A stretch of DNA of 57,822 nt, from NCBI GenBank assembly GCA_043803945.1, contig JAZDJN010000031.1, positions 1-57,822 of the forward strand, in the 5' to 3' direction. The DNA is from a bacterium (GTDB lineage: Bacteria > Bacteroidota > Ignavibacteria > UBA10030). The notes beneath the pieces were generated by a model. The model searched no databases and was not told the DNA's origin. It saw only the letters and a list, made by a program, of their open reading frames with translations. Below are positions 126-9,571 of the stretch, in pieces. Positions within the stretch are counted from its first letter, which is position 1. Every line of letters starts with the position of its first letter. The translations under genes were made by a program, and so were the position numbers.

Positions 126-929
126 CTAGTGCTGTCCCTGAAAGCTCTTGATGTAGAGAATAGAATTTATAAAGAGATTTTTCCCGGCTGTGTTCATCTG
201 TGCTGGTGAGGCGAAAAATCCCCAGAAGAGGTAGTGCTGTACTCTACCAATCGCGACAGCCTCAAATCCTTTGGAATTATTATAGCCGGTCGCCAGCACC
301 TCTCCACCGTTCTTCTCTGAAAATTTTGATGGTGCAATAACCACACCTCCGGGCTTTACCGATGCAGATTGGACGCTCCACACGGTCAATTGGTCGGGTA
401 ATTCTTTGCCGCCGGGATATGTCCGATAACTTGCCGGCGTACGACGCTTCGCATATTTGGGTTTAACAGAGAAGGGAGAATTGAATACTTTCTGATCTGG
501 CAGTTCACCCTGAACCGCATCTGATAAACAGGTTCACATATAGCCGGAACCTTGGTAGGCCTTAAAGAGCAGTTGCCCGCATTCCCAACCGATGAGTAGT
601 GCGGGTTTCGTGATATCCTCCAGCTTCATCGGGAACTCTATCGACTGCTCGGCGTCAACCACATCGATGATGATGACATCGAAAGAATCAATCGGCGCCT
701 TACCGATGAACGCAACATTGCTCCCCTTCACATTGGTGAAGTAGGAGGAAAGTGTGTCGATAAATTCTTGTTGACGTGCGGAGTTCTCCGTGCCCAGATA
801 GAGAATCTTAAGGTCAAATTTCTCTCCTGAAGAATTCTGTGCAAGGGTGTTTTCAGTACCTAGTGACAGCGAAACGATAATGAGAACAGTCAGGAACAGA
901 TTGTGGAAGTCGACTATGGTTCGTGGCAT
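126..929 (-). CDS. Probable secreted selenoprotein (267 aa, U-x-C motif; flavodoxin/GATase-like fold suspected), split into two ORFs in the track
   Basis: ORF 534-929 ends at TGA (534-536). The same frame stays open without stops down to TAG at 126 and joins ORF 126-389. Read-through gives ...QGSGYM-U-TCLSDAVQGELPDQKVFNSPF.... The N-terminus has a signal peptide, and a hairpin lies just 3' of the TGA. Confidence 0.8.
492..524 (-). promoter_or_regulatory. Bacterial SECIS-like stem-loop
   Basis: GCGGTTCA-GGG-TGAACTGC (518-500) starts 15 nt after the UGA: an 8-bp stem with one G-U pair and a G-rich apical loop 23 nt from the UGA. A possible lower stem is TCAGAT/ATCAGA. Confidence 0.7.
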
Positions 930-933
930 ATGA

Positions 934-2271
934 TTACTTTTTCGATGTTTTCTTATTTGGAATCAGGATCAATTCGTCCTGTGGTTCAATGAGATAGCAT
1001 GCGCCCTCTTCATTAATAACTGCCATCTCTTCAACAGAGATTGTCTTTGTCGTTTTCTCCCCCTTATACTCTACCGGCCAGCAATAAAAGCCATCATAGG
1101 CGAAGAGTTGATTCACACGCAGGACTCGTGCCGCATCTCCCGTGGGTGGCCGGTCGGATTGTCCACCGCTTAATGCGGGTCCAAGGTCATGTGCCCAGTA
1201 CCCCACCGGATGTCCTGTTCCCCACATTATTGGTAGGGATTGATTTTCCTTCAACCACAACCGCTGCACTTTGTCTGCATCGTATCCGCGAATTCCAGGC
1301 CGGAGCGCATGAAGTACTTTTCGGTGTCCCGTCTTTGCGATTTCCCAATATTTTTGTATCTCTGGTGGCGCGGTAGTTTCTCCCTTTTTCAGGACATAGG
1401 CAAACCGTTGAATGTCGCTGCACCAAATTCCATAGACCTTGATCCCAAAGTCCATCTGAATAACATCGCCCGGTTGGATTACCTTATCGGTTGAGTGTGA
1501 GTGTCCGCGGTCGGGCCCTGAGTTGACGCTCGGATTTTGATCCGGAGCCCAGCCGTCTTCCACACCCAATTCCTTCATTCTCTTCTTAATGAATCGTGCC
1601 ACATCGGCATCGGTGGTTTTCTCAGGAATTACCGCGTTGTATGCTTCAATCTCCAGTTGGTTGGTGAGCTTGGCTGCACGGGTCATTATTTCAATCTCAG
1701 CAGACAGTTTAACGGAGAGCCATCCAATCACAACTTCCTCGGACGAGATCAAACGTTGAGACCACTCAAGCCCCAGCTCCTTTTCCATCTGAGTGCGCTG
1801 CGTGAAAGATAATCCATCGGCGATTGCACGGCTGGAGGAATTCACGGCAATTGTTCGGGGTTGGTAGAGACCGAGTTGTTGCACCATTGTCTGCCAGACA
1901 TTTGTGCCGCGCGGGATAACAATGACAGTATCATGCAGTCCAATCTCTTTGAGAGCTGTCGATTCGCCCATGGGTGAAATAGCGATCGATCGGATGGACC
2001 CATTAATGTTGAAAAAGAGAAATGCTGCGGTTCCCCCTGCATTTTCTCCTCCCACATGAATTGCCAGCGGGTCATTATTGTTTTCCCTGCAAATGACGAT
2101 CCACGCATCTGCCTGAGCACGTTTCATCGCATCAGGCAGAAGCGTTCGGATCCGTTCTTTCCGAATCCGGGGCCATGGAGAGGGTGTGTGGGCAAATTCC
2201 TGGGCGAGTGTCACTGTGCTCCAGGCGAAAAAAGCAATCAATGGCAGAAGTTGTTTTAGTCTCATCGTCAT
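934..2271 (-). CDS. Exported M24 family (Xaa-Pro) aminopeptidase
   Basis: Signal peptide; pita-bread metal ligands DFG..SDIQR, GHPVG..HD, VEE. Confidence 0.85.
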   Translation of the reverse strand: MTMRLKQLLPLIAFFAWSTVTLAQEFAHTPSPWPRIRKERIRTLLPDAMKRAQADAWIVICRENNNDPLAIHVGGENAGGTAAFLFFNINGSIRSIAISPMGESTALKEIGLHDTVIVIPRGTNVWQTMVQQLGLYQPRTIAVNSSSRAIADGLSFTQRTQMEKELGLEWSQRLISSEEVVIGWLSVKLSAEIEIMTRAAKLTNQLEIEAYNAVIPEKTTDADVARFIKKRMKELGVEDGWAPDQNPSVNSGPDRGHSHSTDKVIQPGDVIQMDFGIKVYGIWCSDIQRFAYVLKKGETTAPPEIQKYWEIAKTGHRKVLHALRPGIRGYDADKVQRLWLKENQSLPIMWGTGHPVGYWAHDLGPALSGGQSDRPPTGDAARVLRVNQLFAYDGFYCWPVEYKGEKTTKTISVEEMAVINEEGACYLIEPQDELILIPNKKTSKK

Positions 2272-2547: not shown

Positions 2548-4050
2548 ATGAACACTATACGTTTGCTGAAATGGATCATTCTTACCTTGATGGTCCTTGT
2601 GTTCCTATGCTCAGCACAGGTCGATCGCAAGCCGGCTGTGGCTGGACAGTTTTATCCCGGTACGGCTGATGAATTGACAAAAACACTTAAAGGCCTCTTC
2701 AGCAAAGCTGTCCCATCAAAGAATCTCAAGAATGTTGTTGCACTCATTGCACCGCATGCCGGTTATGTCTATTCCGGTGCAGTCGCAGCAGCAAGCTATA
2801 ACCAGATCGAGGCAGGCAGAACCTACGATAACATTTTCATCATTGGTGTGAGTCATCATGTTGGATTTGAGGGTGCATCGATCTTTATCAGAGGGAACTA
2901 TGAGACTCCGCTTGGTATCGCTCGAGTGAATAAGAAACTTGCAGAACAACTCCTCAAAGAACATTCAGTCTTTACTTCCCGCACAGACGCCCATGAACAG
3001 GAACATAGCGTTGAAGTGCAGATTCCCTTTTTGCAATATCGATTTGGCAGGGAGGTTTCCATTATTCCGATTGTTATGGGTTCGAGTTCTCCGGAGACCT
3101 GCAAAAAGATTGCTGCAGCATTGCAGCCATATTTGAATTTGAAAAATCTCTTTGTTATCAGCACAGATTTTTCTCATTTCCCGCCCTATGCCGATGCGAT
3201 GCGTTTGGATAAAGCAACTGCCGCTGCGATCGCCTCCCGGTCGCCGGTCACGCTGATTAATACAATGACCACCAATGCCCGCCAGCAAATTCCGAATAAT
3301 GAAACAAGCTGCTGCGGGTGGCCGGCTGTTCTCACCCTTCTCTACATGATCGAGAATGATACCCGGTTCGTCGTCCATCAAATCGACTATAAGAATTCCG
3401 GCGATGCCGATCCTTCATTGAAAGATCGCGTTGTAGGATACCATGCGATGGCTGTTACAATGAAGGAGAATCCGCAAACCGGACAATTTGAATTAACAGA
3501 GAAGGACAAACGGGATTTGCTCACGGTTGCGCGAACGACCATCGAACAGTACACACTCGATCGCACTGCTCCGGAAATCGATGCTTCTAAATTTTCCGGT
3601 ACCATTAAGAAAAATTTCGGTACGTTCGTTACACTTCACAAGGCGGGAGAACTTCGCGGCTGCATAGGGCGATTCACGGCAGCAGAACCAGTCTATAAAG
3701 TGATCCAACAAATGGCAATCGCCTCAGCGACGGAAGATCCACGGTTTCCCTCTGTCTCGAAGCAAGAGGTGAAAGAACTGGAGATTGAAATTTCTGTCCT
3801 CACTCCGATGAAGAAGATAACTTCCATAGATGAGATTAAGCTTGGAACCCATGGTATTTACATCCAGAAGGGGATGAATTCAGGTACGTTCCTTCCTCAG
3901 GTTGCATTGGAAACCGGCTGGACAAAAGAGGAGTTTCTGGGACACTGTGCACAGGATAAAGCAGGCATTGGCTGGGATGGATGGAAGGATGCAACTATTT
4001 ATACCTATGAGGCAAAAGTATTTAGCGAAAAAGAACTAGTCAAAAAATAG
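2548..4050 (+). CDS. amrB: AmmeMemoRadiSam system fused protein B (MEMO1-like) + protein A (AMMECR1-like), with N-terminal signal peptide
   Basis: MEMO motifs RKPAVAGQFYP, PHAGYVYSG, EHSVEVQIPFLQ, STDFSHF, CG. AMMECR1 motifs FVTL..LRGCIG, DPRF, IEISVL, TFLPQVA. Hydrophobic N-terminus ending LCSA. Confidence 0.92.
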   Translation: MNTIRLLKWIILTLMVLVFLCSAQVDRKPAVAGQFYPGTADELTKTLKGLFSKAVPSKNLKNVVALIAPHAGYVYSGAVAAASYNQIEAGRTYDNIFIIGVSHHVGFEGASIFIRGNYETPLGIARVNKKLAEQLLKEHSVFTSRTDAHEQEHSVEVQIPFLQYRFGREVSIIPIVMGSSSPETCKKIAAALQPYLNLKNLFVISTDFSHFPPYADAMRLDKATAAAIASRSPVTLINTMTTNARQQIPNNETSCCGWPAVLTLLYMIENDTRFVVHQIDYKNSGDADPSLKDRVVGYHAMAVTMKENPQTGQFELTEKDKRDLLTVARTTIEQYTLDRTAPEIDASKFSGTIKKNFGTFVTLHKAGELRGCIGRFTAAEPVYKVIQQMAIASATEDPRFPSVSKQEVKELEIEISVLTPMKKITSIDEIKLGTHGIYIQKGMNSGTFLPQVALETGWTKEEFLGHCAQDKAGIGWDGWKDATIYTYEAKVFSEKELVKK

Positions 4051-4109: not shown

Positions 4110-6173
4110 TTGGTGGTACGAAGTAAGAAGAAGGATCTTCAATCATTGCGATCTACCATCAACAAGATTGATACTGATATTCTTAAGCTCCTCGCTGAGC
4201 GACGCTCACTGAGCGGCAAGGTGATTGAAGCTAAAGATGCGACGGAAAAACCTCTGAGAGATCAGTCGCGGGAGGAAGATCTTCTCCGACAGGTCATAAA
4301 GATGGGCAAAGAGAAGGGGCTGGATGCCTACTTCGTGAAAAAGGTCTTCTATGAAATAATCGATGACTCGCTGCGCATTCAGCAGGATTATCTTCAGAAG
4401 AAGGTGAACCGTGACTTGCTGGCCGGGCAGGTTCTCCGCATTGCGATCCAGGGGATTACCGGTTCGTATAGTTACCTTGCAGCGCGGGAGTTTTTCTCGA
4501 ATGTGGAGGCAAGATTATCATTCGTCGGGAAAGAACGGTTTGAAGAAGTCGTCCAAAGTGTCGAGCATGGCGAGGCAGATTATGCGATGCTTCCCATTGA
4601 AAACACGACATCAGGCGGCATCAACGAAGTGTATGATCAATTGCTCCATACCACGCTCTCAATCGTCGGTGAAGAAAAATACCATGTCAACCACTGTCTG
4701 GCTGGAGTGAAGGAAGTACCGATCGGCAAGATCAAAAAAATCTTTGCCCACCATCAGGCTGCGGCACAGTGTTCGCGGTTTCTCGTAACATTGACCGGAT
4801 GTCAGGTTGAATATGTGTACGATACGGCAATGTCAGTGAAGAAGATTATGGATGAGAGAAATCCGGCTCATGCAGCAATTGCCAGTGAAGATGCGGCAGG
4901 ATTCTTCAAAGCGAGAATTCTGCGAAAGAACATTGCCAATCAGACGGAGAATTACACGCGGTTCTTGATCGGTTCACGAAAACCAATCGAGGTGGATCTG
5001 CGCATACCCTGCAAAACATCACTCGTCATGGCAACATCGCAGGAACCCGGTTCGCTCGTCAGTGCGCTGATGGTGCTTAAGAAGTACAATATTAATATGA
5101 CAAAACTCGAATCGAGGCCGATCCTTGGGAATCCCTGGGAAGAGATGTTCTATCTCGATTTTGAAGGGAACATGGCCGACAGTGTAGTACTGAAGATGCT
5201 CGATGAATTCGGCCGCTTTACACGGTTCCTGAAAATTCTCGGAAGTTATCCATCGCGGGACTTGCCGCGAACAAAAGTCGATGCCATAGCTCCATCGCCT
5301 CAGATTGAGGTAAAACCAATTCAGGTGAAGATCGCTGAGCAAGCGGCTCATCCAACGCCCCAACACTCCGGCAAATCAAAGAACTATAAACTGGCAAGCA
5401 GGGAGTATAAGTCGGATGATACAGTCATTAAAGTACGCGATGTAGAAATCGGTGGAAACAATTTTGTCGTGATTGCCGGGCCATGTTCCGTTGAATCGCA
5501 TACACAGATTATGCAGTGTGCACAGCAAGTGCGGGAGCATGGCGGACAGATTTTGCGCGGCGGGTGTTTCAAGCCGAGAACCTCACCCTATGCGTTTCAA
5601 GGGATGGGATATGAAGGGCTTGATCTTCTTGTTGCCGCAGGTAAAGCGTACGAACTGCCCACGATCACGGAAGTTCTCGCTGTCGATCAGATCACCGAGG
5701 TTGCATCGAAGGCAGATATCCTGCAAATCGGTGCGAGGAATATGCAAAACTTTTCCCTCCTCAAAGAAGTGGGCAAAGTACATAAACCGATTATGCTGAA
5801 GCGCGGCCTAATGGCATCGATTGAAGAGCTGCTGAATGCAGCAGAATACATCCTTGCCCAGGGCAACCGGCAGGTGATCCTCTGCGAACGGGGGATCAGA
5901 ACCTTCGAGACTGCAACGCGCAACACGCTCGATCTCAGCGCGATTCCGGTACTGAGGGAATTGACCCATCTGCCGATCATTGTCGATCCTTCTCATGCCA
6001 TTGGCCAACGGGATAAAGTGATTCCGCTGGCAAAAGCGGCAAAAGTGGTCGGTGCTCATGGGATTATGATAGAATTTCATCCTGATCCGCCGAAAGCCCT
6101 GAGCGACGGCGAACAGTCGTTATGGTTCAGCCAGTTCGAACAATTAATGATCGAACTTCGTAATCTTCATTAG
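4110..6173 (+). CDS. pheA: Trifunctional chorismate mutase (AroQ) / prephenate dehydratase-ACT / type I-beta DAHP synthase
   Basis: AroQ LR..INKID..IL.LLAER..RD..RE; PDT LPIENT, N.TRF; ACT KLESRP; C-terminal [52 protein letters not shown] at about 4102; the start may be GTG 4113. Confidence 0.93.
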
Positions 6174-8416: not shown

Positions 8417-9571
8417 ATGAAATCCATCAGTAAGAGAGCGTTCATCCGATACTGTATCCTGGGATCTGGTTCCTGCATGCTGCCGCCTCACATCGGTGTC
8501 GGCCGATCCAGACTTGATACCGATTTCTCTCCGGTGTTATCACACCAACAGGATCTCGGTAAATGGAGTACTGAAGCATTCTTTTATTCGGTATTACCAG
8601 ATGGGATCAAGTGCAGCAAATGTCCGAATGAATGTCTGCTGGGCGAGGGAGACTCCGGCATCTGCCGGAATCGTGTGGTTGAGAAAGGGAAGCTCTATTC
8701 CATTGCCTATGGAAATCCCTGCGCAGTCCACATTGATCCGATCGAGAAAAAGCCTTTCTATCATTTTATTCCCTCCACTCGTTCATTTTCGATTGCTGCA
8801 GCCGGCTGCACCTTCCGTTGTTTAAATTGCCAGAACTGGGAGATATCCCAGGTGAGCCCGAGAGAGACGCAGAATTATGATCTCATGCCGGAGCGAGTGG
8901 TGGAAGAGTGCGAGAAAGCCCGGTGTGAATCCATTGCCTATACGTACTCAGAACCGACATCATTCTATGAGTATGCTTTCCGGACGGCGACGTTGGCGCG
9001 GAAAAAGAAAATCAAAAATGTCTGGAAGTCGAACGGTTATATCAATGCACCCGCACTCCGGCAGCTCTGCACCGTGATCGATGCCGCAAACATTGACCTG
9101 AAATCTTTCGATCAGGATATCTACCGCAGGCTTAGCAGCGGAAAACTTGCCCCAATCCTAGAAGCGCTCAAGATATTTCATGGTGAAGGGGTTTGGCTGG
9201 AGATTACTAATCTTGTGATTCCGAGCTGGACCGATAGTCTGGAGATGATTGCGAGAATGTGCGATTGGTTGGTGCAGAATGGCCTTAGTGAATGCCCGGT
9301 TCATTTTACACGCTTTACCCCGCTTTATAAGTTAACACATTTGCCGATGACACCGGTGTTGACGCTCGAGAAAGCCCGGGAGATTGCCTTGAAGGCAGGT
9401 GTGCGGTACGCCTATGTTGGAAATGTCCCCGGCCATCGTGCGGAAAACACCTTTTGCCATCGATGCGGAAAGATGATCATTGAGCGTAAGGGATTCCAGA
9501 TTGCCGTGAATCATATTGTTGGCGGTGTATGTAATTTCTGCAAGGAACGCATCCCTGGGGTGTGGGGATAA
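8417..9571 (+). CDS. amrS: AmmeMemoRadiSam system radical SAM enzyme with Tat-like leader
   Basis: CxxCP..C..G.C.R N-domain, DPIEKKP, CTFRCLNC (CX3CX2C), QNWEISQ, YTYSEP, YVGNVPG, C-terminal CxxC...CxxC. The N-terminus is MKSISKRAFIR. Confidence 0.95.
   Translation: MKSISKRAFIRYCILGSGSCMLPPHIGVGRSRLDTDFSPVLSHQQDLGKWSTEAFFYSVLPDGIKCSKCPNECLLGEGDSGICRNRVVEKGKLYSIAYGNPCAVHIDPIEKKPFYHFIPSTRSFSIAAAGCTFRCLNCQNWEISQVSPRETQNYDLMPERVVEECEKARCESIAYTYSEPTSFYEYAFRTATLARKKKIKNVWKSNGYINAPALRQLCTVIDAANIDLKSFDQDIYRRLSSGKLAPILEALKIFHGEGVWLEITNLVIPSWTDSLEMIARMCDWLVQNGLSECPVHFTRFTPLYKLTHLPMTPVLTLEKAREIALKAGVRYAYVGNVPGHRAENTFCHRCGKMIIERKGFQIAVNHIVGGVCNFCKERIPGVWG

Follow-up and report, generated by a model that had tools for sequence, protein, structure and literature searches.

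A probable exported selenoprotein with a U-x-C motif and a predicted amidotransferase/ThuA-like fold, encoded across an in-frame UGA in an Ignavibacteria genome

The stretch of DNA analysed here (the window) comprises 57,822 nucleotides and is the whole of contig JAZDJN010000031.1 (C31) in a 5.54 Mb genome of 118 contigs, assigned to the UBA10030 lineage of the Ignavibacteria (assembly GCA_043803945.1). Positions 126–929 of its minus strand hold a reading frame interrupted by one in-frame UGA, which, judging from sequence comparison, very probably represents one real, mis-annotated gene for a 267-residue exported selenoprotein. The frame runs from an ATG at 927–929 to a TAG stop codon at 126–128, with the UGA for selenocysteine (Sec, U) at 534–536.

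The split reading frame, the selenocysteine machinery and the hairpin

The first part of the gene is an open reading frame (ORF) of 131 aa at 534–929 (minus strand) that ends in the TGA, after which the same frame remains open up to the TAG. A preliminary description of this DNA had joined two adjacent ORFs into one frame split by a single TGA, and both the sequence and its translation agree with this. Reading the TGA as U reproduces the 267-residue product with the motif GYM-U132-T-C134-L that had been proposed. The UGA at 534–536 (minus strand) thereby specifies residue 132, which aligns to the first Cys of a C-x-C motif in the relatives. The codon for Cys134 (TGT, 528–530, minus strand) specifies the second conserved residue of U-x-C, which is Cys in 47 of the 51 alignment rows with a residue there.

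Codons 1–30 (840–929, minus strand) encode a probable signal peptide. Its assignment is a judgement by eye, based on a 13-residue hydrophobic core (L11–L23) followed by TLA and Q. Residues 1–30 have a low confidence in the structure model of the protein (pLDDT 54–57), and signal-peptide or lipobox-like starts are also seen among 55 complete homologous Sec-type ORFs that are described below.

Codon usage was scored with log-odds trained on 991 long ORFs of the same genome. In the shared frame the score is 0.111 upstream of the TGA and 0.193 downstream of it, with true coding chunks of the genome at 0.207 ± 0.07, off-frame chunks at −0.72 and the five other frames at the locus at −0.25 to −1.46. 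With translation table 11, the next in-frame start past the TGA is a TTG at codon 181 (ORF 126–389). Initiation at this codon would orphan 48 codons, including those for the conserved residues F149, P152 and P165. At the other end, the protein stops 8 residues past Y259, the last conserved residue of the N-terminal domain (N-domain) of the family. The relatives P0002, P0004, P0008, P0017, P0018 and P0020 share this end point, and the window protein is therefore a genuine short form.

The genome encodes the machinery for Sec insertion that the preliminary description had proposed to look for. The selA (593.6 bits), selB (377 bits) and selD (324.4 bits) genes all score above the curated cut-offs and lie together on contig C87, at 116–122 kb. 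A tRNA-SeC(tca) follows about 7 kb beyond the sel genes, at C87:129548–129644, so that the whole cluster spans C87:116333–129644. It is the only tRNA with the anticodon tca among the aragorn lines searched. Elsewhere in this genome TGA is an ordinary stop codon, terminating 805 of the long ORFs, next to 1061 that end in TAA and 513 that end in TAG. The selD gene itself carries one in-frame TGA, at C87:121300, which is followed by a 7-bp hairpin with the loop GGU that begins exactly 15 nt after the UGA.

A hairpin is likewise found at 500–518 (minus strand) of the window, with the sequence GCGGUUCA-GGG-UGAACUGC. Its 8-bp stem pairs 518–511 with 507–500 and includes one G-U pair, and the GGG loop occupies 510–508. 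The stem begins 15 nt after the UGA, as had been described, and the loop 23 nt after it. The geometry of the selD hairpin matches that of the window hairpin, and thus the SelB of this host would already read such an element. The Fig. 2 legend of a recent inventory of prokaryotic selenoproteins (PMC13188914) gives constraints for the bacterial selenocysteine insertion sequence (bSECIS), namely a loop of 3–9 nt, a stem of 4–16 bp, a G in the first two loop positions, a distance of 16–37 nt from UGA to loop and a minimum free energy (MFE) of ≤ −7.5 kcal/mol. The window hairpin agrees with all of these, having a 3-nt loop of GGG, a stem of 8 bp, a spacing of 23 nt and an energy of −8.6 kcal/mol.

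Conservation of the family, the TGA codon and the hairpin

No model of Pfam-A or NCBIfam 20.0 matches the read-through protein at E ≤ 1, and a word-index search among proteins of similar length returned 552 candidates, none of them at E ≤ 1e-3. An exhaustive HMMER search of 1.84 billion representative proteins yielded 353 relatives at E ≤ 1e-3, with 175 at E ≤ 1e-10. Where their sources give a name, it is "hypothetical protein", and a Cys-containing homologue searched in the ESM Atlas met only clusters of hypothetical proteins (0.85–0.88). The family alignment was made from the best 149 of these 353 relatives, leaving out the window's own half. Position 132 is covered by 83 of the aligned representatives: 76 of them show C-x-C, its first Cys in register with U132, and 7 carry other residues there. 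Within the domain, Cys is conserved in columns 132 and 134 and in no others. Furthermore, H146, E210, K220 and R229 are nearly invariant polar positions of the family, His146 being kept in at least 90% of 150 rows.

The start points of the aligned representatives cluster around the Sec position: 16 of the 149 begin at residue 133 ("MCL..."), 14 at residue 135 and 31 somewhat later, and every member of the subgroup closest to the window protein ("NFLQWG") begins after position 134. Gene callers that read an upstream TGA as a stop codon yield such starts just after position 132. The 16 "MCL..." starters (P0037, P0038, P0044, P0049, P0063 and 11 others) begin at the middle residue of U/C-x-C, which hints at a further subgroup in which the Sec position is a stop codon, probably TGA.

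A metagenome scan with the alignment of the closest subgroup matched 239 stretches; 199 proved to be relatives, and 80 loci entered the comparison. Each of these 80 loci has TGA at the codon that aligns with U132, within the context LKTGY[LM]-U-N-C-[ML]xDAA[HQ]. In addition, the translation that precedes the TGA is homologous to the N-terminal half of the window protein in 67 of 67 loci with an upstream frame of at least 90 aa, at a median identity of 30%. The Sec-type ORF is complete in 55 of the 80 loci, most being 400–460 aa long. Some of these loci (L138, L141, L146, L156, L180 and others) have further TGA codons in the open upstream frame, up to four in L180; these extra codons may simply belong to the end of the gene before.

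A parallel scan of species-representative genomes for the Cys-containing subgroup found 348 relatives; 79 loci were retained, and they stem from Bacteroidales, Pedobacter, Sphingobacterium, Opitutaceae and others. The motif DW[YLF]-C-x-C-L with TGC or TGT is present in 77 of these 79 loci. Most of the Cys forms fetched belong to Bacteroidota (Bacteroides, Prevotella, Alistipes, Pedobacter), and gut and rumen samples are the source of many. A FastTree phylogeny of 132 rows of the N-domain has a branch, with a support of 96, that places all 52 Sec rows, the window's among them, on one side. The homologues had been expected to show Cys or TGA at position 132, and this is borne out both by the C-x-C motif of the wider family and by the TGA of the closest subfamily.

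The hairpin is conserved along with the TGA. In a gap-free alignment of 62 distinct 55-nt stretches that start at the TGA, the helix is formed by columns 19–26 with 30–37, and 95.4% of its cells across the eight base pairs are standard pairs. Compensatory changes occur in four of the eight pairs (11 cells), and the observed values were reached by none of 500 shuffles. When the register of the helix is slid, pairing falls to 28–51%. The window contributes a compensatory pair of its own, with U-A where other sequences have C-G. A G in the first two loop positions is found in 62 of 62 sequences and an MFE of ≤ −7.5 kcal/mol in 60 of them.

Since the stem lies over codons of the conserved DAA[HQ] peptide, the Cys forms were used as a control. 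Their 78 distinct segments form only 1–5 of the eight pairs in the same register, whereas, of the 62 Sec forms, 46 have all eight pairs and 61 have six or more, although the control is somewhat limited by the Cys forms being distant relatives. The identification of the hairpin as a bacterial SECIS, as first put forward, thus agrees with the published constraints, with the covariation and with the lack of the helix in the Cys forms.

Predicted fold, redox context and alternative explanations

A structure model built with the 150-row alignment, with Sec modelled as Cys, reached a pLDDT of 89.1 and a pTM of 0.85, and the model made without an alignment (pLDDT 33.6) was of no use. A Foldseek search of the alignment-based model against the PDB gave 111 matches at E ≤ 0.001, the top ones being class I glutamine-amidotransferase domains (E 2e-6, TM 0.43–0.48). 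With VIA-align, the best matches are the ThuA-like proteins 1t0b (Z 13.3, rmsd 3.3, 187 residues aligned) and 4jqs (Z 12.5), followed by the amidotransferase domains of PhzE, GMP synthetase and HisH (Z 12.4–11.5). The mature protein is therefore predicted to be a single domain with a class I glutamine-amidotransferase/ThuA-like fold, and the GATase-like fold with a UxC site that had been guessed at is what this model displays. U132 and C134 are located at the start of the strand formed by residues 131–140, after the helix 114–125. In amidotransferases, the nucleophile sits before the corresponding helix, at the elbow after strand 4. By the order of secondary-structure elements, U132 and C134 are thus predicted to lie on the strand after the position of the amidotransferase nucleophile.

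At the sequence level, neither the ThuA model (PF06283) nor a GATase model of Pfam matches the window protein at E ≤ 1, and a search of PDB sequences with the family profile matched no chains. The score of a ThuA cluster in the Atlas for a Cys homologue (0.81) is a lead at most. The protein shares only its fold with the amidotransferases and ThuA and is assigned to neither class, because the only conserved Cys residues are 132 and 134, past the nucleophile position as placed by element order rather than by superposition.

The context of the relatives points toward thiol chemistry outside the cytoplasm. The long relatives (450–1009 aa) have a C-terminal DsbD_N domain (PF11412), and some of them (P0131, P0147, P0038) also contain TlpA, AhpC-TSA, Redoxin or Thioredoxin_8 domains. 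The DsbD_N-like part has a pair of Cys residues five columns apart, which are kept in 23 and 22 of 24 rows, respectively. Gene neighbourhoods were compared for the 70 Bacteroidota-type loci of Cys forms in which the gene could be delimited, with neighbours annotated from one representative per cluster. Upstream of the Cys form, a cluster of SusD-like genes is found in 54 of the 70 loci and a cluster of TonB-dependent receptors in 40, and a gene for a DUF4369 protein with an AhpC-TSA/Redoxin (TlpA-like) domain adjoins it in 34. Cys forms of about 640 aa with DsbD_N (L046–L124) are situated behind a SusC/SusD-like pair and beside the DUF4369 and TlpA-like gene; a described function for this recurring set of four genes (SusC, SusD, Cys form and TlpA-like) was not found in the literature searched.

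From these fusions, the Cys pair and the TlpA-like neighbours, the U-x-C motif could be an extracytoplasmic selenol/thiol redox centre, a reading that we hold at about even chances. The insertion of Sec itself is the well-supported part, on the strength of the comparisons: once the ribosome arrives at the UGA at 534–536, the hairpin located 15 nt downstream, at 500–518, very probably acts as a bacterial SECIS, and SelB and Sec-tRNA(Sec), both encoded by this genome, insert Sec at residue 132, the first-Cys position of the conserved C-x-C in a large uncharacterised family. In the redox reading, the U-x-C centre would cycle through a selenenylsulfide and, in the long relatives, be fed by the fused DsbD_N-like domain and by TlpA-like thioredoxins. 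The short form of the window would need a separate reductant, since it has no C-terminal helical region, DsbD_N or thioredoxin domain. A bolder proposal, which we regard as possible but rather doubtful, is that the family constitutes an undescribed class of extracytoplasmic redox enzymes on an amidotransferase/ThuA scaffold, in which the Sec/Cys pair denotes the catalytic residue and the centre is reduced via DsbD_N- and TlpA-like modules and which, in Bacteroidota, works with SusC/SusD-type importers in the reduction or capture of a substrate at the cell envelope before its uptake.

Several observations weigh against reading 126–929 as a gene for a selenoprotein with a redox centre. The 80 loci with TGA were drawn by pattern from representatives that start after position 132 and are enriched for a stop codon there. 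This enrichment does not explain the finding, because the stop codon is always TGA, always at the codon aligned to Cys and always followed by the hairpin. Equally good hairpins occur after 18 of the 805 ordinary TGA stops of this genome (2.2%) and after 230 of 21,227 random TGA triplets, and the fold of the 67-nt stretch of the window alone has a z of 0.38, with a minimum-energy structure that lacks the hairpin. As a feature of the single window sequence, the hairpin is weak evidence; the case therefore rests on the conservation of both TGA and hairpin in the relatives.

Furthermore, the window protein is divergent, with a long branch of 1.59 and an identity of at most 38% to the fetched Sec forms, and its codon 146 (492–494, minus strand) specifies Gln in place of the nearly invariant His146. 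It may be a functionally shifted short form that differs from its relatives in detail. The gene also appears to be sporadic in this lineage, because, among 60 related genomes searched with the single protein, only the genome of the window itself gave a match, and a profile search of 400 other genomes of the phylum gave no N-domain match among the 150 matches listed, those from outside the window covering profile positions 422–577 only, which is the DsbD_N part (136 weaker matches come on top of these). A Cys-form query against 151 genomes of Verrucomicrobiota, the phylum of an Opitutaceae locus, found only its starting genome at E ≤ 1e-10. As for the redox function, what points to it is the motif together with domain and gene associations that come from distant Cys forms, and the short window protein has none of the redox domains seen in the long relatives.

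The alternative that survives best accepts the selenoprotein but assigns it a different chemistry: U132 and C134, together with the conserved His and Glu positions, would bind a metal such as Cu, Zn or Fe, making the protein a metallochaperone or metalloenzyme. The C-x-C and the nearly invariant H146, E210, K220 and R229 could form such a site, and partners of the TlpA/DsbD type also serve in the assembly of metal centres. The Cys forms are encoded in loci with TonB-dependent receptors and SusD, which are nutrient importers. In addition, the inventory (PMC13188914) records Sec as a ligand of the metal in FdhA and [NiFeSe] hydrogenases and includes several metal-binding families. However, Q146 removes one candidate ligand from the window protein, no metal-binding family is matched in Pfam or NCBIfam, and fusions to thioredoxin-fold domains and to DsbD_N with its conserved Cys pair are explained more simply by an electron relay. 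We consider a metal site unlikely, albeit worth keeping in view.

If the TGA were instead a real stop codon, the locus would be a pseudogene or two small genes, and the hairpin would be fortuitous. The public gene calls do hold the 131-aa N-terminal half as a protein (P0001), and both the frequency of similar hairpins after ordinary TGA stops and the divergence of the protein would fit this view. Yet the TGA occupies the identical Cys-aligned codon in all 80 loci with homology on both sides of it, the hairpin is conserved with covariation and is absent from the Cys forms, the restart at codon 181 would discard conserved residues, and the downstream coding signal is close to that of true genes (0.193 vs 0.207), which makes a real stop codon very improbable. 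An assembly or sequencing error that turned TGC/TGT (Cys) or TGG (Trp) into TGA, or decoding without Sec, for example by near-cognate read-through, is hardly credible even though most of the family has Cys at this position, since the same TGA recurs across the closest subfamily, in 80 independent contigs from metagenomes, a Sec-specific hairpin that matches the selD element of this genome in geometry comes after it, the complete Sec machinery is present, and the aragorn lines searched hold no tca tRNA besides tRNA-SeC.

Genomic surroundings and comparison with known systems

Upstream of the selenoprotein gene, an ORF for an M24 metallopeptidase (934–2271, minus strand; PF00557, E 2.5e-21) with a signal-peptide-like N-terminus ends 4 nt before the selenoprotein ATG, and no terminator-like site was found between the two. 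Because of this 4-nt spacing, co-transcription of the two genes is plausible here, as the preliminary description had supposed. As a conserved partner, however, the M24 peptidase is ruled out, since there are no M24 matches among the 634 neighbour ORFs of the 80 homologous Sec-type loci, which makes the association a local feature of this genome. Around the Sec-type loci no gene neighbour is conserved, the largest cluster being present in 17 of the 80 and lying on the opposite strand.

Two further gene arrangements were noted in the window. A fusion of Memo (PF01875) and AMMECR1 (PF01871) is encoded at 2548–4050 (plus strand) and a radical SAM protein 4 kb downstream of it, at 8417–9571 (plus strand), which presumably resembles an AmmeMemoRadiSam-type set with two of its parts fused. 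An ORF of 687 aa at 4110–6173 (plus strand) is a triple fusion of CM_2 chorismate mutase, PDT prephenate dehydratase and DAHP synthase, combining enzymes of the aromatic amino-acid pathway.

For genome annotation, the consequence is that the gene is split or truncated in public calls, with 30 of the 149 representatives beginning just after the Sec codon, and the family is therefore invisible to annotation. The list of selenoproteins would gain a family that has no Pfam or NCBIfam model and that has Sec on a fold unlike thioredoxin. Since Sec almost always replaces a catalytic Cys, the Sec/Cys pair indicates which residue is the functional one in a large family of hypothetical proteins. In the Cys forms this gives a defined target for mutagenesis in Bacteroides, which is genetically tractable.

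The inventory of 2026 lists 119 families and subfamilies of prokaryotic selenoproteins, each with a domain model (PMC13188914, Table 1). None of the Pfam or NCBIfam models of these 119 families matches the window protein at E ≤ 1, and the cd and PTHR entries of the inventory (thioredoxin-like, CopZ, BtuF, Fe-S oxidoreductase) were set apart by their names only. The Sec homologues scanned, four in NCBIfam and five in Pfam, likewise show no model over the domain, and the same holds for several Cys homologues. The protein is thus unlike the classic selenoprotein families, as had been suspected, and no family of the inventory fits it. Full-text literature searches gave nothing relevant that links a selenoprotein to ThuA among the matches listed, and the matched excerpts on SusD, DUF4369 and thiol-disulfide oxidoreductases contain nothing bearing on the window family. 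A Sec/Cys family with a non-thioredoxin fold is apparently undescribed in the main texts covered, and it may stand in a supplementary list under another name.

The closest likeness in overall fold is to the ThuA-like and class I GATase proteins (1t0b, 4jqs, 3rht; GMP synthetase, PabA, HisH), which is shared over residues ~36–265, with VIA-align Z scores of 13.3–11.5 over 170–190 residues and Foldseek E values of 2e-6 to 1e-4. The amidotransferases are cytoplasmic, whereas the window family is exported, and the latter has neither a sequence-level match to them nor, judged by element order, a conserved Cys at the nucleophile position after strand 4. The sole amidotransferase-type bacterial selenoprotein in the inventory is a CTP-synthase-related GxUxG protein (NF004836/COG0504), which goes back to the deep-Sep study (PMC12013277). 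It has the amidotransferase-type fold in common with the window protein, but its Sec lies in a GxUxG motif and it belongs to NF004836, unlike the window protein with its U-x-C, signal peptide and lack of an NCBIfam match.

The U-x-C motif itself occurs in the inventory only in the thioredoxin-like Sec.2 family (PF13192) and in the SO_0444 Cu/Zn efflux transporter (NF033936) (PMC13188914, Table 1). Both have the same spacing of Sec and Cys as the window protein, but they belong to other folds and families, and neither model matches it. With the exported UxxC selenoproteins of the thioredoxin fold (PF13098, DsbA/DsbG-like) and with the DsbD/TlpA pathway, the window protein has the extracytoplasmic location in common. 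As in the exported UxxC proteins, Sec stands in for Cys at the first of the two residues of a redox-type motif, and the link to the DsbD/TlpA pathway lies in the long relatives, which are fused to DsbD_N and TlpA-like domains. The window family differs from the exported UxxC selenoproteins in having a fold other than that of thioredoxin and in being built on C-x-C instead of C-x-x-C.

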